A program made the position numbers and the translations under genes. From Kipferlia bialata (lineage: Eukaryota), in the NCBI GenBank assembly GCA_003568945.1, contig BDIP01000064.1:1-34793 (forward strand): 34,793 bases of DNA, written 5' to 3'. How positions within the stretch are numbered: the first letter of the stretch is position 1; each line of letters starts with the position of its first letter. This document shows, in pieces, positions 3,331 through 34,738 of this stretch. Below the pieces are notes generated by a model, which was not told the DNA's origin, made no database searches, and worked only from the letters and a program-made list of their open reading frames with translations.

Positions 3331-3439
3331 GTATTGTCCATGTATGTATTTATATACAACCCCCACACTCTACTGAGTCCAAACTAGGATAATACGTCTC
3401 TCACACTTATTATCTCTCCCCGTCAGGCCTATCACCTCC

Positions 3440-3924
3440 CTCTCTCACCCCCTAGGCAGATACCCCATCTATTAGTTGGAACACCCTCTCTCAGAGAGTC
3501 CACCCTACTCCACATACTCCCTCCCCCCCCTCTCCCTCACCTCTCTTAGTCTCTCATCTATATCACCTCTCTCACCCACTAGGCAGGTGTCTGTCCATTA
3601 TGTTTAACATCCCTTCTCTCTCTTCCCCATCTCCCTTGCCTCTCTATTATCTCTCTCATCTATATCATCTCTTACCCTCTAGGCCGGGGTATGTCCATCC
3701 TGTTGAACATCATCTCTCTCTCTCTCACACACACACACACACCTCTCTCTCTCCTGTCTTTCTCTCATGTATCTCTCACCCCCTAGGCAGGGGTCTGTCC
3801 ATTCTGTTAAACAGCATACTCTCTCTCTCTCTCTCTATAAGTATATATTTCCCTCTCTCTTTCACTTATCTCTCACCCCCTATGCCGGGGCCTGTCCATT
3901 CTGTTGAACAGCATGTCCAAGGGA
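3440..3924 (+). repeat. Five tandem ~100-bp copies of acceptor + 5' part of exon 3980-4066
   Basis: Exon-start copies at 3456, 3583, 3683, 3787 and 3884, each after a ctcaccc/cttaccc..tag-like motif and separated by (CT)n tracts. Confidence 0.9.
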
Positions 3925-3979
3925 TACTCTCTCTCTCTCTCTCTATGTATATATATCTCATATATATCTAACCTTCTAG

Positions 3980-6900
3980 GCAGAGGTCTGTCCATTCTGT
4001 TGAACAGCATGTCCAAGGGAGATGCCCTGTTCAGAATTGGATATTGCAACGTATCACCTTTGACAGGTATATATATATATATATATATATAGTATATGTA
4101 TAAATAAATATTTGTATTGTATTCAAGGGACATGCCCTGTTCAGGATAGGGTACTGCAATGTGTCACCCCTGACACGTATGTATCTATCTGTCTATATAT
4201 TTATATTAGTTTACGTAATAGTAACAAGTATATTTATGTAGTAGTACGTGGGTGTACATTTACACTCAGGACGTGTCATGGTTAGGCAGTTTGAGTACAC
4301 CACGGCCTCTGCCAATATCCACATGTCCACACTGAGACTGGAGTTCAAGTACTGGGCACCCAGTGCTACGCAACAGGTATGTATACATATAGATGTGTTA
4401 TTATATTAGATATTTTATGTTGTGTATTTATATGTACCATCGGCATATATATATATATATATCTAATCCTCAGGCCATCTCAGCCCACATTGCCAAGACC
4501 AGTGGGCCACACGGGTTCAGGTACTCTTTTGTACAGTATATTGGTACTATTGTGAATGAGTGTGTTCACCCTTGTCACCCCTCTCACACCCTGCATGTTT
4601 CTGTCTAAGCTCCACCTGCAGAATCTGTGTATATATACATTGATATTCATTACATACAATGTAATATACGCATTGTTAATGCATAGTGCATACTATGCAT
4701 TCTATACTCACCCCAGCATGTTTCTGTCCAAGCTCCACCTGCAGATTGTGGGCCTGGACGTCCATTGTTACAACAACAAGAGTGCATACGAGTACCTAGG
4801 TAATTATCCATCATATCCCCACTTCTGTGCGCACACTGCTGCAACTGAATATACATCGTTGCCATATTATATATATTATTATATGTTTACTATTGTATTC
4901 ATAATACATTCCATTGTTACAACAACAAGAGCGCATACGAGTATCTAGGTAACCACTCCTTTCACATCTCTCTCTAGTATGTGTAACTGTTATAATGCAT
5001 AGACCCCCCCCCCTCCTTCCTCCTCTATCTTCCAACCCTCAGAGACTACCATAATATCTCTTATATCAGTGTCAATTAATTTCAATATCTCCTATTTATG
5101 ATACTGACTCACCCTCAGAGACATTGCAGTGCCACATCACAGACCAGGAGGCACCCACAACTAAGGTAGAGTGTAATATAGAAGAATACAATAGTATAAG
5201 TAGAGTATATATATATATATATTATAGTATGTACCTCTACATATATCACAGCCCAGGAGGCACCCACAACTAAGGTACATGCATTGTCACCTGATGAGCT
5301 CTGCCAAGTCGACTACACCTAATGTGTCCTCTCTTTTGAGATCTCGATGTGATGAATATTATCAGCGTGCATACTATTCATATCTCTCCAACCCCAGGTC
5401 CCTCCCCCTGTCATCAAGGGAGAGATGCCATCCCTCCTGTCACTCCTGGGCAGTGTCTCTTTCGATATCGCTAGGTGTGTAAGTATGTGTATACAATTCA
5501 CACATGTACATATATATGCATTCTCTATCCCTTTCCCCTCCCTGCTAACGGCCTTTAGTACTATCCAGTATACCGTATATGCCTAACCCCCCTCCCCCCC
5601 ACCCGCCCCGTGTGTTCCAACTCCTCTCTGCTAGTATCCTTCAGCACTATCCAGTAGTATATACCCCCCCCCCCTCTGCTAACCCCCTCAGTATCCGCAT
5701 GGTGTGTTCCAACCCCTCTCTCCTAGTAGCACTGAGGATAACAGCCCAGACCATGAAGGGACACCACATATTCACAGAGGACACTAGGAGTCATGATGAC
5801 GTGTACAGGTATTGATATCTATTCATATTAGTTGTAGTATACGCTATGATGTAGTATATACCACATACTAACAGAGGACACACGGAGTCACGATGTTGTG
5901 TACAGGTGTGGTTATCTACATTAACGATGTATAGTATTCTGTATCCGATGCAGACTCAGCGCTGTCCAGATATAGAGATACTACTCTCTTGTGTATAGTA
6001 TATTTGCCATGCTAACACCAGTAATGTATCAGACCTCATGCTGACCGAGTGCTGTGCTGATATGATGGAGAACTGCTACCACGACCCCTTGTTCAAGGGC
6101 AGAGTGATGCAGAAGAAGAGAAGCAAGGTATGCATTATTGTATATAGTCTATACCATGTATATATATGATATATGTATGTATGTATATATACACATATTA
6201 CCTCTGTTCAAGGGAAGAGTGATGCAGAAGAAGAGGAGTAAGGTGTGTACTGGATTGTCAGAGTTACGAGTTGTTGCCTCTCTCCCCCCCCCCCTCGTCC
6301 CTTCTTCCTCTTCTACCCCTACCTCTGACACTCTCCTTTTGTTCAGCACAATTTCTACTGCGTAGTATACAACGCATAGTATTGTTTCCTTCTCTCCTTT
6401 GATAATCTATGCTGTACATTGTATGTGTCTCACTCCAGCGCTCTGCCTTTGTTCAGCCCACACACTATATATTACACTACTTATAGTGGATACTATATAT
6501 ATTCTATGCTGTACATTGTAAGTGTCTCACTCCAGCGCTCTGCCTTTGTCCAGCCCAACTACTGTACTATGTTTCCACATATATATGTCATGAGATTATG
6601 TGAATGCGATACAACTCTCACTCCAGCGCTCTGCCTTTGTCCAGCCCAATGTGCCAATCAGGGCAATGTCGGCATCCAATATGCAGGTATGGGTGGAATG
6701 TATACAACTATATATAGTATCAGTATATTGAATTTGTACTTAGATATCAATCTTATTACATATCAATTGTAATATATGACTATAAGTTCAAGCATCTATT
6801 ACTCACCCTCTATACTCTTCAATTGTACTTACCCCCTTGGGCCAAAGACATGGGAGTATATGTTGCAGTATCTCTCTATATATATCTCTCTTTCTCTATA

Positions 6901-8922
6901 TATATAGATGTTACTGACCCAAGGCCAGGGGCAAGGGTGTCTCCAGGAGGCAGAGAGGGGGCAGGGCAGACAGAGACGTGCTACTGCCACCCACCAGAAG
7001 GTACTTAAGTATTGTATGTATACATATATATATATATGTGTGTGTGCATAACATATGTACACATATGCACTATGTATACATACCGTAACCCCAGGGGCTC
7101 TGTGACCAGGCTGGGTACCACCTATATATATACTATTTGTATGTGGAATATACAGTGTATATCCATTCACCCCAGGGGCTCTGTGACCAGGCTGGGCCCC
7201 CAGTCCAAGCACAAGTCCAGGAGGAGAAGTGGCATCAGATTCGATCAGGTGAGGAACAGATGTATGTATTTCTATCTTAGTTTCTAATCTATAACCCACG
7301 GACCATGAACCACATGTTCCAACAGATTCTTGTGGAATCATGGTATATGTTTGTTGTATTAGTTCTCTTTGGTTCTACCTACTGATGAGTATTGTATTCC
7401 TTACCCCCTAGGCCATGAACCACCGTCTGCAACATATGTCTGTTGTGTATGTGTTATATATTGCATTCCTTACCCCTTAGGCCATGAACCACCGTCTATT
7501 TCTTGAATCCATAATTTGTTAAGTATAAGTGTTTATTATTGGTCTCTTATTCCAAGATGAAGGTAGAATGTATAGCCCTTACCCCTTAGGCCATGAACCA
7601 CCGTCTGCAACAGGCCCTGAATGAGGCAGAGGAGGAAGACCACGCTGACATACTGGGTCTGGAGTGCGATGCACAGGTATTGATTGAAATGATGAATACT
7701 ATTATACTAGTATATTATTGTATATATACCATTACTGTTCATAATGTATGTGGGTGCTCTGGAGTGTGATGCACAGGTACTGGGTATATACGAGAAGGGC
7801 CCCGTGCATTAGTATACAACCATCTATCTATCTATATTCATCTCACCCCAGGCCGAGAAGGGCCCTGCCACAGTGTCTGAGATACCCTACGACCTACTGG
7901 TCAATGGAAGTCAGAGGCCAGCGAGGTATGTGTGCTATATACCCCCCCCTCCCCCCCTTACCATATATATGGGTTCCTAGTATATCCTGTATGTACCCTC
8001 CTCACCCTAGGATCCGTCTGGCCTATGCACCAGCTCTGAGGATCAAGCACATCAAGGACAGCCCAGGTATTCTAATCCATACACTAATTGTATTATTGAT
8101 GATGATATTCATCATACGTATACATATGTATATACTCCCCGGAGGATCAAACATATCAAGGAGAGCCCTGGTATGAGTATGTGAATGACATATTATAATA
8201 CGTATATATACACATACATACCCCCCACACCAGGCATATGCCCCCAGTCTCCCTCCCTCCCTCTTTCTTCGTCTCCCTATATATATCCATTCTCCACTCT
8301 ATACCCGTATCATAGCCTATTATCCTTAGGGATGTGCCTTTGTCCCCCCCCCCTCTCAATCTATATGTATTTCTCATTCTTAGGCATGTGCCCCCGGTCT
8401 AACCCATCTTTCTATCTTTCTCTCTTTCCATTATAATACTATCTCTATCTATCTCTATGTATTTCTCATCCTTAGGCATGTGCCCCCGGTCTGCCCCCAC
8501 CAAGCCAGGCCAGGGGAATAGCCCATCCGTTAAGGTATTTCATGACTGAGCCCTCCACAATATCCCTCTCTCCATATCCCCCACTCTGTCTCCCTATGTT
8601 TATATTCTTACACTATTACTCCACCCGTGGCATGGCCGAGCCCTCCACCATATCCTCCTTTATATATCATCNNNNNNNNNNNNNNNNNNNNNNNNNNNNN
8701 NNNNNNNNNNNNNNNNNNNNNNNNNNNNNNNNNNNNNNNNNNNNNNNNNNNNNNNNNNCTTACCCAAGTACTCCACACGTGTCATGGCCGAGCCCTCCAC
8801 CATATCCTCCTTTGCCGACCTCACTCTCTCTCTCTATATATATGTCCTTATATGCATATACTCACCATTAGTACTCTTCTAGGGGCATGGCCGAACCTTC
8901 AACCATATCCTCCTTTGCCGAC

Positions 8923-8954
<32 letters not shown>

Positions 8955-9286
8955 GTCCTTATATTCATATTCTCACCCTCAGTATTCTTCCAGAGGCATG
9001 GCCGAGCCCTCCACTATATATCATCTCTCTCTCTCCCTATATATACACTAACCCTCAGTATTCTTCCAGAGGCATGGCCGAACCTTCTACTATATCCTCC
9101 TTTGCCGAGAGGGATGTCAATGTCCCAGTGGCAGCTGATGGCATCAACCCCCCAGACTACAACGATGACAATAGGTGGGTATTGGTTTTGAATATTGCCA
9201 GTCCACATCTGACTGTATATGCACATTATTCTATTTCAACCTCATATTCTGTTACCTGCAGCCCCCTGTGGCCGTGTGACATGACC

Positions 9287-9326
<40 letters not shown>

Positions 9327-11199
9327 CACTATTCTTATCCCTCAGGCCCCTGTGGCTGTGTGACATAGTTATTCTCTCGCTGTCTGTCTCTCTCTAGCAC
9401 TGTTAACCCCAGCCCCCTCTGGCTGTGTGACATGGTCTTCTTCGACTCCCACCTGTGGTACTCACCCACGCACGACAAGGTATACAGAGTAAATATATAT
9501 ATGTTCATAGTAATACCTATATATATATACATATGAAATGTATCAGTCTCTGCCCATAGAGTGCTAGGCTAGGCACTCTCTACTTGTGTTAAGTCATCTA
9601 TCTGACACTCTAGGAGAGAGGCCGCATCCAGCGCTTCTTCTACCCCCCTACCTACCAGCCCAAGGAGATATACGAGCCCACCGACTGTGTCAGAAGGCCA
9701 ACCTGCATGACTACAGGTGGGGATGGCTCTCTCTCTCTCTCTCTCTATCTCTCTGTCTTACAAGCATTCGCTTTGTTTGTTTTTCGCTATTGCCCTTCGT
9801 TCAACGCTGCTTAATTCTCACCCCCCAGTTATGCACTTTGAGAATCTCAAGCCCTACCTCTACCCTGCACCCAAGATGGTTGAGAACCCACTCTCCAAGT
9901 CGGTACGCTATATATATTCTAGGCCATTAAAATGTGTGTTATCAGTATGCTATGCATACAAGATGGTTGAGAACTCACTGTCCAAGTCGGTATGATTTCC
10001 AGTGATATATCAATGAACTCTTCTTTCGAAGGAAGGGTAGTTATAGACATTGATATATATTGCTTGATGTTTTGGGTTCTATTATTATCCCGGTCTACAT
10101 CTCACCACCTAGCAGGCCAAGCCGACTTCCCCTGCCTGCCGCATCACATACTCCTTCCGCAACACAGACCTCGACCTCGATCTACTCAGGGACCACCCTG
10201 TACTCAAGTGGAGGATTAATCACGGGGCAGGTATTACACATATGCATATGCATACACATACAGTATGGTGTTTCATTTGACCTGTGTCTGCATCGTCCTA
10301 AAGTGGAGGATCAACCACGGGGCAGGTATCCTGTATTCATATACCATATGCGTTTCTTTTGACAAACAGTCAAAGAGTATCTCCCTTTCCCTCTCTAACC
10401 CTTAGATGGTGCCCATCTGGACATCCCCCAGTATCAGTATCATTACATATATACCCACTTATTCATTTAGACCCATATCGCTGTGTATCCCTTCATCTAT
10501 CTAACATTCTAGATGGTGCCCATCTGGACATCACCCCAGAGGGAGTGGACCTGGACCCAGCATCAGTCCTCAAGGTATAGTATCATTTCGCTTCTGTCTT
10601 CAGTGTCCAGCTTTTCAATTTCATTGTAATCCCTTTCTTCAGTGTTTTCTTCCTCTCTTACCAGCATCAGTGCTCAAGTTATGTATAGACTGTGTAGTTC
10701 AGTATTGTCGTGGTCAGGACTATCGCATAAGGGCTTCTATTATTGTTGTGGATCTCTTACTCTTAGGAGCTCATCACCAATCCGTTTGGCGAGTTCATGC
10801 AGGACAAGGGGCCCAGGGTGCAGGTAGGGGGTCACGGATCGAATACCACTATGAACGACGGCCAATAGTGTTTAGTGTACAATGACATTAGTTGGGTTTT
10901 CTGACGCTAATTTGATGTGAGTTCAATTACATTCATATAAACTGTCTAACCTTCCAGGAGCCCACTGGTCCTCAACACTATGTATCCGAGGCCCCCTCCT
11001 CCCACATACCCTCTCTCTCTATATATAAGTAGAAACATATATATATATTGTATGTATGACTTATTTGACCTTAGGAACCTACGGGTCCCCAGCACTATGT
11101 CTCCGAGGCCCCCTCCTCCCACATTCCATCCAACGCAGACAGGATGAGGAGGCAGCACAGCCTGATACTGACCATGAGGGTATGTCATATATAGATATG

Positions 11200-11230
<31 letters not shown>

Positions 11231-14200
11231 ATATTCCATCCAACGCAGACAGGATGAGGAGACAGCACAGTCTGATACTGACTATGCGGGTGGGTTTACA
11301 CATATACATTCAAATACTATCATCTATTATTCTTTGGGTATATGCGTATATGGTGATGATACACGGAGCATCCTCAATATCAGTCTTACACCCAGGCCGG
11401 CAGTGAGGTCTCCATGCGTATTCCCATGGCTGTTGTGGCTCTGGCCCCATCGCACGGACAGGGCTACACAGTGGGGGGGAGGTAGGACATTTACATATTA
11501 CGTAGTGATTACCACATCACTGTGTGGTATATGTGTATGTATAATTCATTTTCTTATGTTCAGGGACGAGACCTCCTACTCCAACAGGACCGCTGAGGCC
11601 GCCGGACCTGACCCAGGCCAGCTGGTCAACCACGTGTCTGTCACAACAATCAAGGTGGGTTGTGCATACATATGTTTTTCGTAAACTTTCAATAATAGGT
11701 TCAAGCGTTTTGCGGTTATTGAGATGGAATAGACTTCTTGTTCTTCCTTGTTGTGTCCTGACCCCATAGGCCTCTGGTCTCTCTGTGACCTCTCTAATCA
11801 CTTATCATATCGACATTCACAACAAACATGATAGTATGAATGATCCTCCTTACCCCCCAGGCCTCTGGTCTCTCTGTGACCTCCTCTCTGACCAACCATG
11901 AGTTCATGGTGGCAGAGGACTTTGGGATGTCCTTTAAGTAAGTGGCATACTCTATATACTATACCAGTGCTCAGAATATATATATATGTAATCATATTGG
12001 ATCCTTGATGGTAATATTTAATAGTTATTATTCATGAGCTCGTGGTGGCTGAGGAATTTGGCATGTCGTTCAAGTGAGTACTTCGTATAATTTACCTCTG
12101 GTACTATATATATATATATATGAATATATATATGTTCTTGAAGTTATTGGTAAATATGAGTCCTTCTATTTATCCCTCACCATCAGGATGAAGAGTGGCC
12201 TTGAGGTGGATGGTGCCCAGGAGTGGACAGGGGACATCAACCTAGGGGATACTAGACTGGTGCTCACAGCAGACTACATCGCAGAACTCACAAGGTATGG
12301 ATATATACACACACACACACATATATATATATCCGTTCTCGAAGAATAAGTACCTAGAAGAATTGTAGTAGACTACAATCGCAGAGCTCACTAGGTAAGA
12401 CATATAGATGTATACGTATAGTCTTCTATACACTAAATCAAATATTTATATATACATAAGTATTGATATATAGCAGACTACATCGCAGAGCTCACAAGGT
12501 AAGACATATATTGGTATATCACAAATAGATGACTTATCGTCTTCTTCTCTTGTTTTGCGTTGTACTGTTCCTTTCTCACCCCCAGGCTCTTTGCCGACAT
12601 GGGCTCCCCCGACCCCTTTGAGATCCACAAGGAGGGGGTGTCCCCTATCCTCATGTTTGCACCAAGGTATAAACATCAATACATTCCTCCATTGGTCGAT
12701 TCTCTTGTCATCCAGTAATTTGTCGCAGTTTCTCTATGTATATGTTGTTTCTGCTGTATCTTACCCTAGGATCCAGGAGTACAACATCAATCTGACCAAC
12801 TTTGAGATCATTGTCAACGTCAATGAGAACAACGTGACGGAGAGACTCACCAACGTGTCGAGGTGGGTGATTGTAAGATTTTGATTTGAATGAATACAAG
12901 TGTTATTAGGATTGCCAATTACTGTCATCTACATCCCTATATGTTGTTTCTGCCTGCTTGAGGTGGTAAGATGTTTTCCTCACCTCAGGATGGCCAGTGC
13001 CTGTCCCGGTCTGTTCCCCAGGGCAGTGCCCATCACAGAGGACACTGACCCTAACACTAAGGTGGTGATATTCATAGTATATGCATACAGTAAGGACACA
13101 CTATATGTCTTGTCTTAGAGGACACATACCTACTTGTGACCGACAATCCTTATATATGTCTTGATTGTTCCACTCACCCTTCAGCTTGAGCTTGGCTTAT
13201 TCACAATGTGTACATATACATATCTATATGGTATATATATCACTCTCTCACCCCAGCTTGTGCTGCATGGCCCAGAGTGCCAGGTCAGCATGACCATACC
13301 AAGGTCAGTGGCATGTAGTCACACATATATATAGATATACACCTTCCATCACATATCCCTAAATAATTACTATTCCCTTCTAACCCCAAGGAGTCTAAGT
13401 ATACGGATGTTATTCTTTGATATTTCCCTAACCCCCAGGGAGTTCTACAAGGGCGACGCCCCTGTCTCTGAGACTGGCCACCAGATGGGGTCAGTCCCTG
13501 AGCCAGTCACAGACTTCACAATGGAGGTATATATATGTATATATCACAATGGAGGTATCGGCAGTACTATGGCGCGGAATATTCTAAACATGTGAAATTT
13601 GTTCCCAAATCTGTGTCTCACCCTAGGTTGTGCTCCAGTCTGTCTCCGGTACCCTCTGCTATGGTAGACACGTCGAGGCCACGCAGTACATCCCAAGCAG
13701 GTACTTGGTCATCTATGAAGACACCATGTAACTTCATTACTAAACACCTCTCTATATTGTAATTCCATATGTAACATATCGTCTCACCCCTTAGGGCTGT
13801 CCAGCTGCTGGATGTCCACAGACTCAACATCGGGGGGTCATACCTTACGAAGAGGTATGTGCATACATGGGTATTCCAACTGTATTCTGTGAATCTATTG
13901 TACTATTTTATTATTGTATTATATGTTAGGCATATCATCCTTACCCCCAGCAAGGACTGGGCCGGTCCCAAGCCAGAGAACAACGTGTTCTCCCTTGACA
14001 TTGCATGCTTCAAGCCAACTGTCTCTGTGTCAGGTATCAACATTGGATCTAGACTGTTGTCAATAGAGTGTCTAACTCTTCGCTGAATGGAGTTGGACAT
14101 TCCCTCTTCTCAACCCTAGGATATGCCATTATGTACTACTGGAGACTGGTCGACAACCTGTTTGGATCCACCAAGCTCTTGATGAGTCCACAGGTGTGTA

Positions 14201-16130: not shown

Positions 16131-16162
<32 letters not shown>

Positions 16163-20037: not shown

Positions 20038-20070
<33 letters not shown>

Positions 20071-23000: not shown

Positions 23001-26000
23001 GAGGTACACTGTAGTATCTACTTGTGTCCTTCTCCTCTTTTCAATGAGTGTATTCTTTTCTGACCCCCAGGATGACCTTCTCCGTTGGTCTTGTTCCCAC
23101 TCTTGACAGTGGAAGTGTCCGCTATGTACCTGGTCCAATGTCACCAGGTAGCACACAGTACACAGTGGATACAATATTGATAGTTCTTTTTGTGCTACTT
23201 CCTGTCTCACCCCCAGCTGTCCTATCCCCCAGCACTGTCCCTGTTGTCCCCCCTCCACCTGTGGCTGGGATACCACCCCACACCACAGCAGTGCTCGCAC
23301 TGTCAGGTATAGGCATTGTCATTTAACTATAATCAGATCACCTCATATTGTGATAAGCCACCTTATCAGTACTGGAAAGTACTTCTCTAGTCTCATAACC
23401 AGGCCTGCACGCCAGGGTGACTGAGATCTTCGAGGGCGTCCACCTTATTCAGGAGCTGATCGGTCTCTTCACAGCTGGACTCAAGCCCAAGACTGAACCC
23501 ACGTACGTATTGTAGTATGCCGCTACACCAAACAACTATATGCGCTATTTCTCACACCAGCCGCCGGAGCATTGCAAGAGAGAACACCCTGGCTTCCCTG
23601 ACCCCTCCCCCGAAGCCATCTGATGGTCTCTTCTCTCTGTTGGGGTCACCCACCAAGCTAGTAGTCACACTGGAGGTGAGTATATTCAGTGTTCTATTTT
23701 CATACTTTTGTCTCTAGTATTCATTAACAACGGTGTCTCTAAAGGGTTGTTTTCTTACATTAGGACATGGGCGTAGAGATTGAGTTCCGTGACATCATTG
23801 AACTGGCACTCACTGCTCCAAAGCTATCAGGTATGTATAGCCAACTCATACCGTTTTGTCTTGAATGCATCCCTGTAACATTTCTCTTGGTCTCTGTACA
23901 ATCTACTTGTGATTATTCATCTTACTTGGGTATCCGTATACTGCACTATCTCACCCCAGGCCTCATGGTTGTGCCTGGTGTGTGTGGGGATGAGACTGGA
24001 CCCACAGACGACAGGGGCACACTCAGACAGGTGGGTTATATACACAGACATATATATATTGATAATGGGGTATATATGGAGACGACAGGGGCACACTCAG
24101 ACAGGTTGGTTACATATATATTGATATATCCAAGTGTATTCATTGCACGAATACTTTAGGAAGTAGTATTGCGCAAGCTACGATATTTGAATACTAAATT
24201 ATTTCTCTTCCGAGTCTCACTATTCAGGCCCAGTTCCTGGCCAGGATGGACGGGGTTGCATTCACCGGTGCATCAGACATATTCAAGCAGCAGGTATGTG
24301 TTGTCAAGAGCTATATTTCACCCTCCTCCTCCTATCCTCCTCCTATATATATCTGAGCAAACCTCATGACAGCTGGTATATTTGCGGCTGACTGTCTCTT
24401 TCACTTACCCTTAGGACACCAAGGCCGACCGAGGACAGGCTGGTATCAGACTGCCTGCAGTGTATGTGTCCAGTACCGTGTCAGTATGGGAGGTGGGTAC
24501 ATATATTTAACACGGATATGTATCATATCCTGTGAGATATTCTTTACTCTCAGGCTCAATCGACCCCTGTCTGTGAGCTCTCTGTGGCCCTAGATGAGAT
24601 GTACGCTGAGGTGTCACTAGATGCCATATCCAAGTTACAGGAGGTGCAGGTCTCACAGGCCATGTACATGCAGAACAAGGTAAATGTACACTCCAAGTGT
24701 CGTGGAGTTTGTACTCTGACAGTGTCCGCTCACCCCTCTATGTAATTGACCCAATGCTCCAAGTCAGTAGTTATGAGTATATGATAGTAGAGGTTGTAGA
24801 TTATGTGTGTAGACATGCTAAGCTCTTCTCTCACCCCTCAAGGTCATTGGCCCCATGCTCCAGATGCTGGAGCAGAGACCAACCACTCCAAACACAAAGT
24901 GAGTATAAAGTGATACTCAACGCATAACCATGTCTCGGTTGTAGGCATCTGATGTCAAGACCTATACACCCATATATGTAGGAAGTGATATATAGCTCAC
25001 TATATCTCTGTGGTTTACTTCTCTTCTAGTCCGCTGTGCGTCTGGCGTCAAGTGTCAGTGTCAATATATTACTGAATACTAACCCCCTAGGCTGTATGCG
25101 TCTGGTGTCAAGCCAGATGCCCCTGCCCCTGGGGACGTAGTCAAGGGTGTCTCCCTCCTATACGATGTGCATGTACTGGTACCTAGTGCCATTGTCCACA
25201 TCCTGAGTCCAGAGGCAGACATTGTACTCTCCACAGGTTAGTGCAATCTTGCCTATCTTCATCACAATTTCATCTCTATTTGAGGTAATATTTCTTTGGA
25301 TATTACCTGAATATATTCATCTCACTGTCAGGAAGTGTTGAGTCTGAGGTGTCCAACCTGCCTCCCCAGCTACAGGGCAGGCGGGACTCCCTGGCTGGTC
25401 TCCCCCTGCTGGACACGGAGGTACTCATATATATACATTGGTACATATTTCAAGAGTCAATACCGAATATTACTGGTACAGTGTCATTTCTATTGTCTCA
25501 GAATAGTAATTTATATTATGGGGATTAGTAGTTCATTATTCATCCAATGCTCACCGTCAGGCGCCCCTGTCGTTCAGAGTCAACCTCGACCAGACACGCA
25601 TAGGTACATTTTCATATTGAGTCATAGATACATATTAGTTAGTAATATGTGATTGTGGTATGAATAGTAGTTCTATGTACAGTGAGTTACCTCACCCCAG
25701 GCATCTTCAAGCATGCTGACGGCGTCACTGTGTCTGAGGTTGTGAAGAGGCTGTTCAACTCATCCAACACCGTACAGACATACCAGACGGGTCAGGGAGA
25801 GATTGTCTCACAGCAGTGCGAGGGCTTCATCATCAGGTATCATACTAGTTATGCATACACATACACCATATATGGTACTGACTCTCCTCTCAGCAGTGTC
25901 TCACTCCAGGTCGGACCAGGCCTGGCGCTCCAAGTGCTCATTCTACAGCACGCTGTCATTCTCAGTGTCAAACAGGTGTGTAGAGTGACGTATGCATAGT

Positions 26001-29000
26001 AACACTTATTGTATTTCACACTATGAGATTAGGTCACTTGCCCGTGTTTGTCTGTCTGTTCTTAATTTGTCTGTGTATTTGTCTGCGTTCTCACCCTCAG
26101 GGTCCCAGCCAACCGTGGCCTGACCCCCACTTCGTCCCACTCTGGCCTGCCTACCCCAGACTCCAAGTCACTCGTCCTGGACGTCGATGTTAGACAGGTA
26201 CGCATTCCTTTGTAGAAATATGTAATAGTATTGTTTGACCTGTATCATAGTTCCTTGTGCTGTATGCTGTCGTGTAGTTACCCTATACTCATCTCACCCA
26301 GGCATTGGTCGTCACCCACCCTTCCCTGATCACCACTGCAGTCGCCACACTCAACTTCTACTCGACAGCTGTGGAGTCACTCAAGGACAACCAGCGGAAC
26401 ATCGCTAAGGTACTCCTGATACATTTGTCTCAGTGTAATTGTCAATTGTGGGATGCATTCTTTATTTTATATTGTTCATGTCTCACCCCTAGGTCCTCAA
26501 GCAGCAGGAGACCGAGAAGGTGTTGGGGATGGCTAGCAGAGGACTCAACAAGGCGCAGGTATGGGAAGAAGAAGAATTGAAGGAACATGATTTGCACTTA
26601 CTATCTCCTCTATTCATACAATAGTGCGACATGTCTTATTCCCTCACCCCCCAGGAGCAGATGATTGACATGCTGCAGGACAACCTGACCGACCTCGTCT
26701 TCAGCCTGTACATATCAAACATCAACATATCACTGCTCTCGGACAGAATCTACAGGTGAGAGACTACTTTGACGTAGTACACTCCATATTAATGATGTTC
26801 TGGTTCTTAGAATCTGACTCTAGGGCCACTCTTGGATGTGACAACCTTAGTTTCTTTGGCCAGTACACCAAGTCAGTCTCTGCCAACATGGCCAGATCCC
26901 TGATGCAGCTGACTGGTCAGCTCACTAGCGACGCTTTCCAGGTATTTGTAGTTGTATTTATTCAGTATTGCTCTCTATATTCCTTTTCATGGTTGCCTCG
27001 TTGTTCAGTATTTCTCTCTACCTTCATCTAATTCATTTCTCACCTCAGATTGGCATTGCCTCTGCCTGTCTCGATGACCCTCTCCCCAGTGATACCTCGG
27101 TGGATCTGTTTGATGATCCCAGAGAGACCCTGGACTCTGTGAGGACATACACCAGGGTCACAAACATCGCTAACAGGTGCGATATGTATATTGTTTATAA
27201 CCTCTCTTTGTGTTACATATCTTACCCCCAGGGCCCGTGTCTCTGTGTCCTCCACCTGCCACTTCACGTCCACAAACACATCACTCAGGGGGGCACTCCA
27301 GGTGCGTATAGTATGTACTGTCTAACCCGTTAATCCTCTCTGTGTATGGTCAGTTTGATCCGCCACATTTGGATGCACTCTAGGTGCTTTTAGGCGTGGC
27401 ATTCTCTGTGTCCATGTCTGTATATATATATTAGCATGCCTCTCACTCTAGATGCACCTCATGGAGATGTCAGCGAGTGTCGACCCCGGTGTCCTGTCCC
27501 AGACCATGCACATCCTGACATCCGTGGCATCGTACCTCGCACAGGTACATATTTCTCTTGCATATTGTTTTCTACACGATTATTTTCTTACCGTGTAGGC
27601 TGGCAAGGGGGAGGCCGTGCCTGACAAGTCACCTTCTTCTCCTGTGGATGATAACGATGGGTTCGAGTCGGCCTCTGAGGACGACACTATACTCCTGAGG
27701 TATCATACTGATATATCACTGTAGTCCATGTATACATGGTATGTTATTTACCCATCAGGAGTGTACTAGGTGACACCCCTCGGGGTAGGGCCGAGGAGAA
27801 GGAGAAGGAGAGAGAGGCTGAGGCAAAGGCCGCCAGGGAGAGAGAGAAGGAGAAGGCGAGAGAGGCCGAGGCTGCCAAGGCTGCATCCCAGGCCAAGAAG
27901 ACTGTCTCAATCTCTGCCAGGTATAGTCATGTAGAGTATCACTGAAATCTCAAGCTATGATTCAGTCTTCTTTATACTAAACCCCTCACCCTCCCAGGTT
28001 CAAGACCGCTGAGGCCTCAATCCACATCCACGAGAGGATCAGATCACTCAACACAAGGTGAGTTTAGTAGGTGGTATTCTGGTACTATTAATCGAAATTA
28101 TGTAGTTTTCTGATAGTTAGGGAGCAGGAGGCTGCCTGTGTACTTTCTCTATCACACCTTATATCCACTATATAGTATTTTATCCCTATCCATCTGCCAC
28201 TTCCTTACTACTCAGAGAGCAGGAGGCTGCCTGTATTTATCAACGTGTTCTCTACATCCTCTCTATCACTCTATATACTGACCCTTAGGGAGCAGGAGGC
28301 TGCCTGTGTCCTTAGGTTCCCCTCTGTTATGGCCCATTGTCACCACCACTCAAAGACTAGTAGGACAAAGGCTACATCAGGCACCAAGGTACCTGTGTTT
28401 ATCTACGCGATGCAGTATATATATATATATACATATATATATATTCACTGACCCCAGGTCACTGTCGATGTTGACAAGATGCGCCTTGTCCTCCCCTCCG
28501 AGATATTCATCTTCATGAGTGCCCTACCCTCTGAGTGGGAGGCCTACCAGCAGTCGTGGGCTGAGCCCGACTACGACCTCCAAGGTGACCATTCCTAATT
28601 GATTTATCTTTAGAGTTGGTTTCAATGTTTCAGTGATAGCTTATTATTCATACTTTGAGTTGATTCACTGTTTCAGTGACAGTGAATGTCTAGTTTGAAA
28701 CCAATCTCACCCCTCAGATAGTGAGGACGATAGCACTGACGAGATGAACGTGTCTGACAGAGAGAGAAACAGACTCAGGTGGGGAAATAGTGTTAGCTAA
28801 GCTGTTGACGATACTTTCAGCATTCGTTTCTGATTTTCTTACTCTAGGAACCAGTCCAACAACATGTGGGGCGAGATCACTGCTGAACTCAGGTATGGTC
28901 ACCTACCTCAAGATTGTTTGGTAATTCATATTCACCCGGAGGTCTCGATTTATTGTGTCATTGATGTATTCCAACTACCTAATATGTTGTTACTATCCAC

Positions 29001-32000
29001 TTACCCCCAGGACCATCCAGCACAAGAGGGAGAAGGACCAGGCCAGGGAGGAGCAGAAGGTGACAGATTCATGTATATATAGGGTGTTTCTACCTTCAAG
29101 ATGTGGTATACTGAACATTCCATGATTGTTGTCTATTGATATATCCTCTAACTGATCAGGCCAGTGGTCACAAGCACAGGGATGATGGTACCCTAGTCAG
29201 AGGAACCTCCGGACACCAGCTGTCCGTGATGCTGAGGTATGTACACTCACCTATTACTCTTTGTACTACACGATATGGGTAGGCCAGTACTTACCCTCCA
29301 GGATCCGCCCTGTGGATGCTTCTGTCGCCAGTAGAGTTGGTAGCGATGGATCACTATCCAGTGTCAGTACCAACTCCATGACAGAGGTACTGCTACCACA
29401 CACACACACAAATATATATATATATATATATGAGGTCCATCGTACTGCTGCTCTTGTTCTTACATTGAGGTTGTGGCGAAGGTTGCCCTACCCATTGGCG
29501 CTGTTCTGTGTCTGACAGCCAACCCAACACGGGCAGGAAAGACATCATCGGTGCTGGTCAGAGTGCCCTCTGTTGCTGCTAGGTAATATGCATCATTCAT
29601 TTATATAGGTGTGTTAGTCATCTTAGGTACCAGACTCATTCTTTCACTAACGGTGTGGTACACCTCCTAACCCGTAGGATATCGGTCAATGCCGGTACCC
29701 AGTCTGGCGACTCCCTTGCACTCAACATCGACAACACCGTAATCACAACGTCCTCCTTGACCCTGGGCGCCTCCTCTCTCCCCTCCGTCACTGTGTCTCC
29801 ATCTGCCCCCATTCCAGTGTGCTTCCAGAACACGAAGCTGCTTGTCGGTAGCATAGGACTCAGGTGCGCATTCTATATTTGTAATCATAAATTGGAATTT
29901 ATCCAGTACTATACACTTTTCCATATCTCACATGAATATGTATAATACATATCATATACTTGGTATGTATGATACCTCACCCCAGGGCCTCCCTTCGCAC
30001 CCTGGAGCACATCTCTTTCCTCACTTCCACTGTCACTCAACACCTGGCCCAGTTCCCATTTGCAGCAGAGACACTCCCGCCCCAGGTATGTTAATATATC
30101 TGTAATGGTATATATTAGTATTTGTAGTATATCTATAAGTATCTGGCACAGTTCCCATTTGCAGCAGAGACACTGCCACCTCAGGTATATAGGTTATATT
30201 TTGAAATCTACCGCATCGGGCATATTCTGTGTCTATATAGTTTAACATATTCCCTAACTTAGTATATTGTCTCTAACCTCAGGGTCCCGTTTCTGTGTCC
30301 AGTGGTACCCATACCTACACCCAGGTATGTAGGGAGTATATACGTTAGTACTGTTGTATGTGTCAGTATCACTACTTGGGTCACCCTCTCTTCAGCGTGG
30401 AGTGTGTGCTATAATATGACGACATACTCTTCCACATGTATATCCCAACTGTGTCTACCTCTCTTCCCCTCACCCCCAGGGCACCTCCTCCCTCAGAAAC
30501 ACATCGGTGTCTGGGGCATCCGCAGGTATCTAGTGTCTTATATCTATGAAATTACATATGTATTTGTATATTGTGTCAGGGGCATCAGCAAGTTATTATT
30601 GGAAGTGTCACATATACATGGGTATACATGGATACATTGTCAGTTCTGTATCAATGTCTTGGTAGTTAGGAATAGTATTCTATCTTTACAACCTTTCAGC
30701 GATATGATGCTCACCCCCCAGGTGGCAGGACCCACGGTGCCTCCAACCAACTCAGACGCAAGGGGAAGCTCCTGCTGGTCTCTGTGGCATCAACATCTCT
30801 ACAGGTACATATTCAGTGTGCGTGTGTATATATCATACTTCTCATAAGTACTCACCCTCCAGGCCGACCTAGGCGGAGTGCGTGAGATTGGCATAGTCTC
30901 TCTACAGACAGACAACCCTCAGAGCGGACAGACAAACCCAATCAGGTATACATATTGTCAGTAGTGATATCGAGTAGATTGTTTGGTATGTCTCTAACCG
31001 CGTAGGTTCCTGCACCGTGCTGCTCCGGGTCCCAGGAGAGTGTTTGACTCCGTGCCCAGTACAGTGATGCTCGCAGTGCCTAACGTGAGTTGTGCATGTG
31101 TCTCTATATATATCTCAGTCTCATTTTGATTTGCAGAACATGGTATATTACTCACCCCAGCTGAATCAGTCCATAGTAGTTATGATGTATACATTGTATA
31201 TCTCACCCCAGCTGAGTCTCGAGTTCTCTGGCAAGCGCTCCTCTGCTCTCAAGAGCAGGATGATGCTGTCTGCCACTGTTGCCGTGGCCAGGAGACTGCA
31301 GTTCCAGACATCAAAGACGAGGAACAGGTGCGTATACCTATACATATTGTTTGGCTAGTCACCCTTATAATGTGATGACTGAACGCAGAACCAGTACGTA
31401 TTCTTTTTCGCTAGAGTATGGTGTCTGTATAGCTGTATGGAAACACTGAACTCACCCCCTAGGCTTGTGCAGCTGCCCTCCGATGTGTGGACATATGCAT
31501 CGGTCCCCATCCTCAGATTCAAGGTTAGGGAACTTGGATTATCTCATTGTGGTAGACCTTTGGATAACTGTTCCAAATTTTGATAGAGATTTGTCTATAT
31601 CATTGTTAGTACTGGTATTTGTCGCAATTGGTTGATTGCCTCACTGACCACCAGCTCTATGACGAGCTTGAGCTGTGCACCGTGACTGCCAAGGACGTCA
31701 AGTTCATGTCTGTCGGAAACACAGTCAGAATCAGATCGGTCAAGGACCTGCACAGGTTGGTTAGTAAGTATATACATATATCTATGTATTGTATATAACT
31801 GGTGTTATCTTGCGCGATAATCTAACCCCCTAGGACCCGTGACTCTTCAGCTGCCACCCTGGATGCCAGACACCTGGAGGCTAGGGCGGGCTGCAGGTAC
31901 TGATGTATATGCATGTAGTGACAAGTGACAGTATTGCTAGATATCGCTCAGGTATCTTTCTAATCCGCAGGACTGTGTCTGTGCTTGGTGGTCTCATCGA

Positions 32001-34738
32001 CGGTGTCATTGACAATGTCAAGGCATCCCTGAGAGCAGGTGTGTTGATTCCATCATTTTCTATGAAGATCCAATATCTCTATCATTTCCCAGTTATGTTT
32101 CATTATATACATCTTCTCACCCAGGTACCAAGTTGGGTCAGAGGGGTCAGAAGGCCCGCCGTGCCCTGCCTAGAACTGCATCCATGGCGGGGATCAGCAG
32201 CTTGAGTCAGAGGTATAGTGTATATAGATATATATATATTGGACCGGTATGATCTGACTATACCTTACTCATTATATATTTGTTACTGTATATGTGATAC
32301 ATGCATATTTAGCTCGCTTTGATCCACCAACTACATCATGCACTTGGTAGTGTCACTCACCCTTCAGGGACGAGAGACTCAGGGCCAGAGGCGGTATCAT
32401 GCTGGCTGGACTGGGACAGGTGTGGATATAGTATATGTGCACTCTAACATACCAAGTCTCTCTAGTTAGATTAGAGTCTAACCCAGGCTTCTGAGTCCAT
32501 CAGATCAGGCCCCCTCTCACTCAAGAGCATGTCTGCCACCACATCAGCCAACAAGGGTAGAGGGCCCGGGCAGGTACACATCGCGTAACTATAACCGTGT
32601 AGTTTCACACTCCTCTGACCCCAGGTCACCCTGCACACCCTGATGCCTGAGATGTGTGAGCAGAAGGACCTGGACGCTGTCACTCTGTTGAAGAGGTTCC
32701 TGCTGCCTAGCAAGGGACCTATTGCATTCAGGTGTGTTTGTGCCATTTGGCCCTGCTCTCTCTCTATACAAATACACTGTATGTTGTATGGTATCTGACC
32801 CCTAGAATCAGCACCCTCGAGGTCTCTCTGGCCAGTGACACTCTGGCAGACCCACTCTGGACACAGGTTCATACACACACAGACTCACACATATTCATAC
32901 ATTCATCTACTTGTGAGTCTCGAGTTCAATTGCATCCCCCGTCCCATCACCATCCTAGGCCCACGCATGTGTGCCAGACTTCCATTTCCAGTATATCATA
33001 TACATATGTATATTAATGTACTCCAAACTCCTGGGCTATCCCTTGCCTCATCCCAGGCCCACATGTCCGAGCTCCAGTTCCAGTACTATATGTATATATG
33101 TATATATGTGTGTGTGTGTGTGTACTCCAACCTACTCATAGACTATCCCTTGCCTCATCCTAGGCCCACATGTCCGAGCTCCAGTTCCAGTACATCCAGA
33201 CATCTGGGAGTGAGTCACTCAAGGGGACCAACGACATGAACCTGAGGCCTGTCGCAAGACTGCTCTCAAACTATACGGTTAGTAATGCTCCTCCCATCTC
33301 TCAGCATGTTTACTATTGCTCACTCTCAGGTTGGATCTACCCTTGGAGAGCTCTCCAAGGACATATCTCTGTCGTGCAGGGCCCTCTGCCTGGACGTTTG
33401 TCGTACGGGTCTAGGTATGACCTTTCGTAGTCATATGTAGAGGAAGTATTGCATTATATTCTTCTTATCCATTAGGCAAGGACGCCATCCAGAAACTCAA
33501 GTCCAACGAGACCTACGGCCCAGCCGACCATGAGCACGTGTACTTCAGTGTCCAGATGCAGCATGCTAAGGTACATGGAGTGTATACGTATGTATCTCTT
33601 GGTTAGTATGGTTTGGAGCATGATACTGACCCTTCAGAAGACCAATGTGGCTCAGATCGCCAGTCCCATCAAGTGGCAGCTCAGCTCTCTGGAGACACTC
33701 GTGTTTGCCAGGAGCCAGATGAAGGTAGAGACTCATTGACTCTATGTACTATATAATATATATATCCATTTCTTATATAGTTTAGTATTTATACTCTCGT
33801 TGTGTCGTACTTATTAAATTGGTAGTTTCCGACACCCAGGATGGTATGCTGCGCCCTGTCCTGCACCAGAATGTGGAGGGGTCTCTGACTGTGCATACGG
33901 ATGCCTTCCTGCAGCACACTAGGACCATGAGGCCCTTTGAGACACTCACACACGTCATATCAGACCTCATTGCGGGTTAGTTTTACAATATTCATTCCCC
34001 AATGTATTCAATACAAGTGTAGTAGTATCTGGAATTTTTACCTATCAATCTCTCGATTCATTCTCACCCTAGCCTTCAAGTCCCTGTCCTCCGATGGTGC
34101 TGACCCCTCCTACATGCAGATGGGGTCACAACAGACACAGCCATCCAAGGGAGACACGGACTTTGCATTCTGGGGTCCCGAGGAAGAGGAGGTACGGGGA
34201 CCAATACTCACTGCACTTGCATCTGATATTAGTGTCAATGAAATATATATATCAATGAAATATATATACATATATATGTATGCATCTGACCCCAGGAGCA
34301 GGAGGATGTGGCACCCAAGGACGAGGGAGAGGAGGCTAAGGTAAAGAGACATTTTTTCCAATTTTTCTACATTCTATGGCAATTCTCTCTGGATACTGTA
34401 TTTATCATTATTCATTAATCGTCATTTGAGGTATTCTTACCCACTAGGAGAAGGCCTCTCTGGATGAGTACCGCGAGATAGTGCACAAGGACAAGGTGGA
34501 CTTTGTCCACTTCCTGCAGACCAAGGTATACACACAATACACGCACCACCTTACTATATCATAAGTTCATCAACAATCCTTGTGAATGTAACCATTCTAT
34601 TGCTAACAACCCAGGTCAGAAAGGCTGACATTCTGCCCCAGTTGGCCAGTCTTGGCAAGGGCTCAGACCTGGTTGCTCCCATCTTCAGAAAGATCAGCAG
34701 CAATCCCACACTCTGGCAGGGCATCCATGGCAACACGG
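3980..34738 (+). CDS. BLTP1: Bridge-like lipid transfer protein, BLTP1/KIAA1109/Tweek/LPD-3/Csf1 family; 137 exons, about 4,000 aa, runs off the right edge
   Basis: Spliced motifs resembling the Csf1/BLTP1 N-terminal region as I recall it, in the expected order: GRGLSILLN..VSPLTGRVMVRQFEY..EFKYW; LHLQIVGLDVHCYNNKSAYEYL; HIKDSPGMCP; LWYSPTHDKERGRIQRFFYPPTYQ; FAPRIQEYNINLTNFEIIVNVNENNV; GYAIMYYWRLVDNLFG. Hand-chained in-frame GT-AG exons: 3980-4066,4270-4376,4474-4520,4717-4799,5119-5165,5398-5474,5692-5808,6022-6127,6627-6686,6924-7000,7176-7248,7590-7676,7852-7925,8011-8066,8476-8534,9059-9174,9413-9479,9614-9716,9829-9902,10116-10230,10513-10574,10767-10823,11075-11179,11396-11481,11564-11654,11861-11937,12187-12294,12586-12666,12770-12862,12989-13061,13257-13303,13439-13526,13627-13700,13795-13854,13951-14033,14120-14193,14282-14335,14484-14599,14918-15013,15112-15216,15310-15383,15510-15613,15709-15896,15951-16054,16239-16309,16406-16491,16591-16672,16780-16841,16961-17014,17111-17182,17243-17332,17477-17587,17682-17806,17878-17965,18130-18201,18328-18460,18553-18718,18833-18899,18983-19060,19148-19211,19285-19475,19541-19644,19752-19864,19919-20028,20114-20210,20346-20446,20507-20581,20684-20753,20826-20908,20967-21051,21137-21232,21315-21370,21560-21707,21773-21892,21957-22388,22457-22696,22792-23003,23071-23147,23217-23306,23403-23502,23561-23675,23764-23830,23960-24030,24228-24293,24415-24492,24554-24679,24843-24898,25091-25236,25332-25420,25561-25603,25701-25836,25910-25975,26101-26197,26302-26409,26493-26558,26655-26755,26824-26941,27049-27176,27232-27301,27452-27544,27599-27699,27759-27920,27998-28057,28289-28388,28458-28584,28718-28778,28848-28892,29011-29059,29160-29236,29302-29386,29470-29582,29678-29863,29986-30085,30283-30324,30480-30525,30722-30804,30863-30945,31006-31084,31212-31327,31463-31523,31655-31755,31834-31896,31971-32038,32125-32212,32368-32419,32487-32573,32625-32731,32806-32866,33164-33277,33330-33414,33476-33570,33638-33724,33840-33975,34073-34191,34296-34340,34448-34525,34615-34738. 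No database search was run. Confidence 0.85.
4124..4182 (+). repeat. Intronic copy of 3' half of exon 3980-4066 with donor
   Basis: KGHALFRIGYCNVSPLT|gtatgt vs KGDALFRIGYCNVSPLT|gtatat. Confidence 0.9.
4594..5280 (+). repeat. Intronic half-exon copies around exons 4717-4799 and 5119-5165
   Basis: 5' copy 4594-4623 (acceptor AG changed to TG); 3' copies with donor at 4911-4948 and 5245-5274. Confidence 0.88.
5871..6565 (+). repeat. Intronic half-exon copies around exons 5692-5808, 6022-6127 and 6627-6686
   Basis: 3' copies 5871-5905 and 6201-6242 with GT donors; 5' copies ctcactccag|cgctctgcctttgt near 6439 and 6536. Confidence 0.88.
7087..7500 (+). repeat. Duplicate acceptors + exon starts upstream of exons 7176 and 7590
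   Basis: ccccag|gggctctgtgaccaggctggg near 7095; ccttacccc.tag|gccatgaaccaccgtct at 7412 and 7481, degraded copy at 7302. Confidence 0.9.
8143..9020 (+). repeat. Cluster of half-exon copies: one 3' copy, three gcatgtgccccc starts, five MAEPSTI-type starts
   Basis: 8143-8170; starts near 8234, 8330, 8384; and 8542, 8617, 8769, 8872, 8983 upstream of the functional exon at 9059. Confidence 0.88.
8672..8758. other. Assembly gap (N run)
   Basis: 87 N inside the tandem half-exon array. Confidence 0.99.
9255..10680 (+). repeat. Half-exon copies around exons 9413, 9829, 10116 and 10513
   Basis: 5' copies near 9262, 9346 and 10406; 3' copies 9960-9989, 10295-10325 and ~10661-10678. Confidence 0.85.
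10958..11295 (+). repeat. Exon 11075-11179 sandwiched by recoded 5' half (10958-11008) and 3' half (11233-11289)
   Basis: Both halves encode the same peptide as the exon and keep the outer acceptor and donor. Confidence 0.92.
11760..12504 (+). repeat. Half-exon copies around exons 11861-11937 and 12187-12294
   Basis: 5' copy near 11770; 3' copies 12033-12073, ~12368-12394 and ~12472-12498. Confidence 0.87.
14651..14890 (+). repeat. Tandem copies of 3' end of exon 14484-14599 plus following intron, with a 7-N gap at 14767-14773
   Basis: gtgcagctgcactcagt.ac.gatag|gtatattagcat repeated at 14651 and ~14812. Confidence 0.85.
15781..15822 (+). repeat. Coding (GAGGGA)7 hexanucleotide repeat encoding EGEGEG...
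   Basis: Direct reading inside exon 15709-15896. Confidence 0.9.
28115..28240 (+). repeat. Two intronic copies of the start of exon 28289
   Basis: ag|.gagcaggaggctgcctgt near 28121 and 28217. Confidence 0.87.
30143..30190 (+). repeat. Synonymously recoded 3' copy of exon 29986-30085 with donor
   Basis: LAQFPFAAETLPPQ|gt in both copies. Confidence 0.9.
32950..33085 (+). repeat. Two upstream copies of acceptor + start of exon 33164
   Basis: ctatcccttgcctcatcc.ag|gcccacatgtccgagctccagttccagtac at 33057 (near-identical); degraded copy near 32959. Confidence 0.88.

Follow-up and report, generated by a model that had tools for sequence, protein, structure and literature searches.

Introns of one long gene of Kipferlia bialata contain partial copies of the exons beside them, and these copies differ from the exons mostly at silent positions. 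How did coding sequence come to lie in introns and still diverge in this manner? We analyzed the window (the whole stretch of 34,793 nt, contig BDIP01000064.1), in which a first-pass annotation had described direct, adjacent half-copies of exons in dozens of introns. A de novo splice model predicted a host gene of 137 exons and 4293 open codons. Pfam searches with 10 single exons of the gene gave nothing at the cut-off, a 144-aa exon had no match among longer proteins of 253-2000 aa, and a 38-aa exon had none among 1.84 billion representatives.

Half-exon copies in the introns of the host gene

Each of the 137 modelled exons was aligned to both flanking introns, and the chance level was taken from non-adjacent exon-intron pairs. 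With a score of at least 24, 57 exon-intron matches were detected (2.2 expected), and with a score of at least 30, 46 were detected (0.14 expected). Forty-four of the latter start from the expected splice site and form the scored set. The copy at 8769 was dropped from the scored rows and re-entered by hand in some later analyses; the second row removed was the N-gap duplicate at 14719-14766. All 44 scored copies are adjacent to the source exon and in direct orientation, as the annotation had described. Their polarity is strict, since the upstream copies are exon 5' ends (25/25) and the downstream copies are 3' ends (19/19). AG is intact in 20 of the upstream and GT in 17 of the downstream copies, and these signals often score as high as the real ones. 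The features are listed in Table 1.

Table 1. Position of the host gene and of the half-exon copies in the window
Feature	Position	Strand	Remarks
Host gene	3980..34738	+	De novo splice model; putative first exon upstream of 3980; 3' part beyond window end
Acceptor + exon 1 5' half, array	3440..3924	+	Scored 3583, 3683, 3787, 3884; 3455 decayed
Exon 1 3' half + donor	4124..4182	+	8 silent / 2 changing codons
Exon 4 copies	4594..4954	+	5' half 4594-4622; 3' half + donor 4910-4948
Exon 5 3' half + donor	5245..5280	+	Sole downstream copy with strong acceptor (5257)
Exon 7 copies	5600..5911	+	5' half 5600-5636; 3' half + donor 5860-5905
Intron 8	6205..6558	+	Exon 8 3' half 6205-6242, then exon 9 5' halves 6439, 6536; weak 6331
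Acceptor + exon 11 5' half	7083..7115	+	21/21 identical; branch motif differs
Exon 12 copies	7400..7782	+	5' halves 7412, 7481 (weak 7303); 3' half + donor 7758-7776
Intron 14	8142..8400	+	Exon 14 3' half + donor; 63-nt old intron, intact at 8171-8233; exon 15 5' halves 8234, 8384
Intron 15	8535..9058	+	Exon 16 5' halves 8617, 8769, 8872, 8983; 8541 decayed; N gap inside
Exon 17 5' halves	9250..9369	+	9262, 9346
Exon 19 3' half + donor	9953..9995	+	
Intron 20	10295..10431	+	Exon 20 3' half + donor (4 silent / 0); 80-nt old intron, intact at 10326-10405; exon 21 5' half
Exon 21 3' half, donor lost	10661..10678	+	
Exon 23 copies	10946..11295	+	5' half 10958-11013 (8 silent / 0); 3' half + donor 11233-11289 (4 silent / 0)
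Exon 26 copies	11758..12079	+	5' half 11770-11792; 3' half + donor 12033-12073
Exon 27 3' half + donor, two copies	12367..12504	+	
Exon 38 3' half + donor, two copies	14651..14843	+	14651, 14789 real; intervening scaffolding overlap at 14719-14766, not a copy
Exon 72 3' half, donor lost	21445..21470	+	
Exon 83 3' half + donor	24080..24110	+	
Exon 88 5' halves	24938..25052	+	24938 scored, 25037 weak
Exon 104 5' halves	28109..28234	+	28121, 28216
Exon 113 3' half + donor	30143..30190	+	4 silent / 0
Exon 129 5' halves	32947..33086	+	33057 identical, spacer alignable; 32959 decayed

The distribution of the copies is uneven: 25 of the 54 exon ends are affected in exons 1-27 and 7 of the 219 in exons 28-137, and a neighbouring gene of 14 exons has no copies. 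When the layers were removed, the core introns had a median of 96 nt, and the 108 introns free of copies had one of 95 nt (p 0.29). In the 28 affected introns, added layers account for 59% of the total length. Where one intron holds both kinds, the order is the 3' copy and then the 5' copy (3/3).

Silent bias and divergence of the spacers

The codon-position spectrum of the 44 scored copies has an excess at the third position: copy and exon differ at 25/457, 11/455 and 92/452 sites of positions 1, 2 and 3. Eighty-five differing codons were silent and 35 changed the amino acid. The silent share is thus 71%, whereas a dead copy next to a live exon should give 42%. The hand count of the first-pass annotation was 48 silent and 9 changing codons over 13 entries; on recounting we obtained 47 and 13, so that the silent excess stood but the share of 84% was somewhat favourable.

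For the ratio test, the nearest copy of each exon end was used (n = 32). Differences were found at 33/155 four-fold sites (21%) and 20/641 zero-fold sites (3%), and the ratio of 6.8 exceeds the 2:1 that a cis duplicate could reach at most (p 9e-6). Simulations of dead duplicates with the same trimming (4 x 300) gave mean ratios of 1.9-2.1 and a maximum of 6.25. Comparison of copies with neighbouring copies (13 pairs) gave a ratio of 6.1 (four-fold 14/57, zero-fold 8/200, p 0.008). Within arrays, zero-fold differences numbered 0/125 in the nearest copies and 9/241 in the farther ones. The silent differences were even in direction (33 AT>GC, 30 GC>AT), and among the amino-acid-changing differences the copy more often carried AT (20 against 10). 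No silent difference was present in 9 of the 32 nearest copies (heterogeneity p 0.04), and the 20 pairs bridged by a single sequencing contig (see below) showed a weaker bias than the full set (31 silent and 16 changing codons).

Several other causes of the bias were rejected. CpG was touched by 22/139 differences, and the ratio held or rose when 4-8 nt were trimmed from ragged alignment ends. A higher mutation rate in exons than in introns was rejected because the spacers had diverged more than the copies. By reasoning, conversion between copy and exon alone could not raise the ratio past about 2. We therefore uphold the proposal of the annotation that copy and exon diverged while selection acted on the protein sequence of each.

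In 34 of the 44 copies, the spacer beyond the splice motif matched no more closely than a randomly chosen intron, and some copies have an identical exon part with an unalignable spacer. Therefore, these spacers diverged before the copy died. The spacer was alignable in the other 10 copies, and in three arrays (exons 9, 16 and 38) the units have 82-90% identity over their intron and exon parts. The branch motifs of copy and exon are unlike, yet they mostly fit the consensus. In the exon 1 array, an Arg codon switches between CGG and AGG from copy to copy. The exon 16 copies in intron 15 each carry a different silent version and form a mosaic, in which all four combinations occur at 4 of 21 informative site pairs, as in recombinants.

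Origin of the copies

We lean towards the reading that copy and exon stem from two long-diverged working alleles, which were brought together by one-sided recombination with its anchor inside the exon. This is supported by the polarity, the silent bias, the unalignable spacers, the cis arrangement, the normal length of the core intron and the one mosaic series. Among the origins suggested by the first-pass annotation, capture from very divergent alleles fits best. One-sided invasion, or SDSA, leaves one homologous and one non-homologous junction and a short copied tract, and is known from engineered breaks and gene targeting. The joins observed here have homology on one side and an abrupt non-homologous other side, as after one-sided invasion, although cis duplication predicts the same. 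Dinucleotide runs of 6 or more were found at 15 of the 44 joins (p 0.008-0.045), with no significance at thresholds of 5 and 8.

The process would start with a break inside an exon, in a cell carrying a very divergent allele (about 25% silent difference, introns mostly unalignable). One broken end would enter the exon of the other allele and copy past the splice site and some 40-130 nt of the donor intron, and the released strand would then join the other broken end without homology. The incoming splice site and exon half would become the working ones, and the old half would stay with its old splice site in the lengthened intron. Repetition, together with unequal crossing between a copy and the exon of another allele, could produce five or six layers with the oldest innermost, and the stranded copies would afterwards decay neutrally. 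The spliceosome is predicted to pair sites across the exon and to pass over the stranded sites. Long copies should be purged; the longest one observed covers at most 64% of its exon. The crowding into exons 1-27 and the absence from the neighbouring gene are unexplained by this two-allele model. No donor allele appeared among the listed pieces of public run X1, and a search of metagenome contigs gave no relative; 1 of 190 candidates matched (E 2e-4), lacked the intron motif and was judged a chance match.

A less probable course, to which we still give some weight, is that the exon-intron boundary was duplicated in tandem in cis, as in the amphioxus 'mirage' repeats, and that the duplicate soon underwent unequal crossing-over or conversion with divergent alleles. 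The 10 alignable spacers, the whole-unit identity in the three arrays and the mosaic exon 16 series agree with this, and the structure itself is already known. However, an alignable spacer is missing from most single copies, even from some whose exon part is identical. Almost every cis duplicate would therefore have to undergo a further event within about 100 nt, and before decay, given the absence of zero-fold differences in the nearest copies of arrays. This course presupposes the allele pool of the two-allele origin, very diverse and recombining, and differs in the first step only; the first step of the two-allele origin is indistinguishable from a cis duplication that later recombined with another allele.

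It is improbable that the copies are used now, as alternative micro-exons or by non-canonical joining, with their protein sequence kept by selection. The mostly intact splice signals would suit such use, as would the copy spacing of 67-153 nt, which resembles an intron length, and the first run of the splice model took in four copies as frame-neutral exons. In addition, 5257-5274 in the exon 5 copy is bounded by an acceptor and a donor and is a possible 18-nt in-frame micro-exon. Nevertheless, 20 of 21 intact decoy acceptors would produce a stop or a frameshift if used, and a strong donor ahead of the real acceptor is missing in 18 of the 21 intact upstream decoys and present in 3. An acceptor scoring 8 or more was found in 1 of the 19 downstream copies. 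The outer copies decay with an AT lean, and the set did not qualify as mutually exclusive duplicated exons, which would carry acceptor and donor on the copy. Thus, the suggestion that the copies serve as templates or are joined non-canonically found little support. The acceptor of the exon 11 copy would, if used, add 27 codons in frame.

We also doubt strongly that a homeolog or paralog, since lost, supplied the second version, or that whole exons were duplicated, functioned side by side over a long period and were then shortened by deletions. Such a history would produce a silent bias and spacers that have diverged. On the other hand, the exon 16 series contains more than two silent versions, no paralog letters at 80% likeness were seen among the listed pieces of public run X1, and deletion of whole duplicates gives no cause for strict polarity at 32/32 exon ends.

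Interleaving of two haplotypes by the assembler, also raised by the annotation, is very improbable. Copy and exon lie on one contig in at least 20 of 37 pairs among the contigs listed from run X1, which may itself be the source data; the remaining 17 have no bridge among them, and none of the listed contigs spans 3400-4200 or 8500-9200. The bridging contigs (615-2438 nt) run through both copy and exon at uniform depth and with 0-2 deviating letters; the depth of the listed long pieces is 354-459. Neither a second haplotype nor variant letters in exons appeared among the pieces listed, and two haplotypes could not supply the four to five distinct versions present in some arrays. Therefore, an interleaved assembly was rejected, with the exception of one N-gap duplicate. 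This duplicate is an identical 48-nt overlap around 7 Ns at 14719-14766 (artefact region 14719-14821); of the annotated copies there, those at 14651 and 14789 are genuine. Public run X2 yielded short low-depth pieces only, one of which crosses intron sequence, and these speak neither for nor against expression.

Relation to known boundary repeats and to splice-site choice

The half-copies are a variant of the amphioxus mirage splice-junction repeats, but an unhomogenised one. Mirages are described in Adh3, the globins BflGb6 and BflGb9, TnC and PGBD5; in the portions of the reports available, splicing is reportedly undisturbed and unequal crossing-over is the proposed origin (PMC3087553, PMC3902484). 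The view of the annotation that nothing of this kind had been described was therefore too strong. As far as those portions go, both systems are direct tandem duplications over the exon-intron boundary, on either side, with AG or GT kept, and the unit sizes are alike (150-160 bp in mirages, 67-153 nt in this gene). Copy number in mirages varies between haplotypes or cells; one sample was covered here. Mirage units, however, are 81-100% identical and evolve in concert, whereas most spacers here are unalignable and such identity over intron and exon parts is reached in some arrays only. The copies here are also distinguished by exon parts about 7 times more different at silent sites, by their density in one gene region and by the many single copies. 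The accessible text of PMC3087553 lacks the word 'synonymous', and that of the two mirage accounts does not mention silent bias with unalignable spacers. A literature search, mostly outside subscription journals, found no paper on boundary repeats with silent bias or allelic origin.

In intron 7 of human F7, a 37-bp VNTR repeats the exon end and donor, and the most upstream donor alone is used (PMC1557585). According to the part of this source available, its monomers are identical, occur on the donor side of one intron and have no described allelic divergence, in contrast to the copies here. Internal gene duplication as a source of new introns (Rogers 1989; Gao and Lynch 2009), as cited in the accessible part of PMC3087553, likewise involves short intragenic duplications with splice signals; it creates a new intron position, whereas the copies here only lengthen existing introns. 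One-sided invasion or SDSA with a non-homologous second end is named in the available text of PMC9299229 and in a reference of PMC4888836. In contrast to engineered breaks, it would here act repeatedly in nature, with introns growing through exchange between alleles.

We suggest tentatively, with rather less than even confidence, that introns in this lineage grow by stacked half-exons from other alleles, that a single haplotype preserves, in legible form, the past variation of a hyperdiverse pool of recombining alleles (silent divergence about 25%) and hence evidence of outcrossing, and that the spliceosome of a short-intron protist picks sites across the exon despite dozens of intact decoys. 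If this is right, one genome would record past allele diversity and recombination, which normally need population sampling, and this would help with microbial eukaryotes in which sex has not been observed. It would also show concretely how introns can lengthen, by a measurable increment of about 100 nt with each layer while the core intron stays unchanged. For short introns, the available text of PMC9225289 reports pairing across the intron as the rule; such pairing would select decoys here and break the gene. The locus would then be a natural splice-site competition experiment, with about 37 intact decoys in introns of 175-524 nt.

Gene models and half-exon copies

The window holds two intron-rich genes (see the table). 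After training on the window's own sequence, a splice model predicted 141 exons in the giant plus-strand gene. Four of them, each with a length that is a multiple of 3, are themselves copies of neighbouring exons and were taken out by hand; the remaining 137 exons give 4293 stop-free codons. The introns are GT-AG, with a median length of 95 nt where copy-free. The branch motif adjoins the AG, and this fusion of branch point and acceptor is similar to the diplomonad arrangement described in the accessible part of PMC6679479. An intron-rich fornicate such as Kipferlia would be a candidate host on the basis of this intron type. Single exons of the protein (>4293 residues) were searched and none had a family match. 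Judged by size, it may be a bridge-like lipid transfer protein. For the minus-strand gene, the upstream end was looked for past the poly-G run at 3208-3247 and was not found.

Each exon was aligned to its flanking introns. At a score of at least 30, 46 matches were detected vs 0.14 expected, and 44 of the 46 are anchored on a splice site. All 25 upstream copies are 5' halves (AG kept in 20), and all 19 downstream copies are 3' halves (GT kept in 17). They cover on average 36% of the exon (maximum, 64%) and lie 67-153 nt from it. The copies are real and well above chance. They are present in one gene of the window; half-exon copies were sought in the neighbouring gene and none were found. Copies were borne by 25 of 54 exon ends in exons 1-27, against 7 of 219 in later exons, and copy density per exon end is about 14-fold higher there than in the rest of the gene. 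Introns in the region of exons 1-27 have a median length of about 215 nt, vs 84-107 nt further on, and third-position GC shows no shift matching the copy-rich region. Since very short relics fall under the score threshold, the true number of copies exceeds 44 and extends to the middle of the gene.

Features of the window and their positions
Position	Feature	Observation
1-49, 3208-3247	Long poly-G runs	Possible assembly weak points
112-3187	Minus-strand gene, 14 exons	Product probably coiled-coil; intron signals as in the giant gene
3308-3341	Possible first coding exon of the giant gene	ATG 3308, donor 3342; phase fits exon 1 (by eye)
3980-34738	Giant plus-strand gene	Runs off the window end
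3980-12500	Exons 1-27	Copy-rich region
5043, 13185, 13548, 16186, 18039, 20261, 31161, 32959	Very short relics	Splice site plus ~4-15 nt of neighbouring exon
5257-5274	Candidate micro-exon	Copy with good acceptor and GT donor; 18 nt in frame, repeating six residues
7095	Decoy acceptor	Use would add 27 in-frame codons
8171-8233, 10326-10405	Intact GT-AG introns (63 and 80 nt) nested in longer introns between two half-copies	Might be excised ahead of the longer intron, which would eliminate both decoys
14719-14821	Identical 48-nt stretches flanking 7 Ns (14767-14773)	Rejected as a genuine copy; scaffolding-overlap artefact

Cis arrangement and silent bias

Run X1, a public DNA run that was independently assembled and may be the source data of the window, covers 3300-14741 in long contig pieces with 0-2 other letters at a depth of 354-459. 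No variant letters were found in exons among the matches listed at 80% and 90% likeness. When the 8 longest pieces per query were considered, at least 20 of the 37 copy-exon pairs of this region were on one piece, including the copy at 10958 (8 silent and 0 amino-acid-changing differences). Among the matches listed, no piece bridged the exon 1 array or the exon 16 array. The contigs show that copy and exon are in cis; a single haplotype is only suggested, since contigs can drop rare variants.

The first-pass annotation had counted 48 silent and 9 amino-acid-changing codons. The silent excess holds in the full set (85 and 35), where it is less marked than in that selection. Differences at codon positions 1, 2 and 3 were 25, 11 and 92. 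If a live exon has a dead duplicate next to it in cis, the four-fold rate of difference should be at most about twice the zero-fold rate. When each exon end was represented by a single copy, 33/155 four-fold and 20/641 zero-fold sites differed, a ratio of 6.8 (p = 9e-6). In comparison, simulations with identical end-trimming gave mean ratios of 1.9-2.1, and 6.8 was reached in 0 of 1200 runs; removal of ragged alignment ends did not lower the ratio. The bias also appeared when copies were compared with each other (14/57 four-fold vs 8/200 zero-fold, p = 0.008). Thus, the bias cannot stem solely from changes in the live exon. Among silent differences, the two GC directions are in balance, and amino-acid-changing ones lean AT in the copy, as expected if the former predate the death of the copy and the latter came after.

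Intron layers and the origin of the copies

The spacer, the intron stretch beyond the splice motif of the copy, was no closer than random intron in 34 of 44 copies. In a cis duplicate with only 3% decay, the co-duplicated intron piece should still align. The branch motif beside the copies differs from the real one and mostly still fits the consensus. Common to copy and exon is what selection keeps in working genes, namely amino acids and splice signals.

Without the added layers, which make up 59% of the length of the 28 affected introns, the core intron is 96 nt vs 95 nt in copy-free introns (p = 0.29). All three introns that carry copies of both types have the 3' copy first, and in two of them the copies enclose an intact GT-AG intron (63 and 80 nt). 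The series at exon 16 contains five codon versions of one peptide start, and all four combinations occur at 4 of 21 informative site pairs; therefore, recombination or conversion is needed.

We infer that copy and exon derive from two alleles with a silent-site divergence of about 25% (0.25-0.30 after correction). Since the introns are unalignable, homologous pairing could begin only in exons. After a break inside an exon, one broken end would invade the exon of the other allele, synthesis would proceed through the splice site and on into the donor intron for ~70 nt (the spacers have a median of 68 nt and a range of 39-131 nt), and a non-homologous join to the other broken end would follow. 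This would produce precisely the arrangement seen, in which downstream copies are 3' halves and upstream copies are 5' halves. Arrays may grow by unequal crossing between a copy and the exon of another allele. The main rival, cis duplication followed by allelic recombination, would reach an identical end state, and both it and one-sided invasion need a highly diverse recombining population. In the available text of PMC8516963, fornicates have lost NHEJ and Rad51A and possess Dmc1 as two paralogs. Joints containing mismatched triplets are stabilised by Dmc1 (PMC6719624, in the part available). If the host is a fornicate, these properties would suit exon pairing of divergent alleles.

The copies belong to the same structural class, splice-junction repeats, as amphioxus mirages (direct tandem repeats spanning the exon-intron boundary), whereas the unit identity described for mirages in the accessible parts of PMC3087553 and PMC3902484 fails here. 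Thus, they are a variant of mirage-type repeats that does not match mirage unit identity. In a literature search short of most subscription journals, no description of half-exons with a silent bias and an allelic origin was found, and 'duplicat' is absent from the main text, as available, of the Kipferlia genome paper (PMC5874029).

Decoy splice sites

Splice scores of the decoy sites are often equal to those of the real ones. Use of 20 of the 21 intact decoy acceptors would give a stop or a frameshift, the exception being that at 7095. Thus, the gene must largely ignore the decoys. Judging from the accessible part of PMC9225289, cross-exon pairing would bypass them and cross-intron pairing would not. 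In the F7 repeat of mammals, the first donor is used (PMC1557585, in the portion available). The length ceiling on the copies may reflect a selection filter. The duplicated-site experiments of Reed and Maniatis reportedly point in the same direction.
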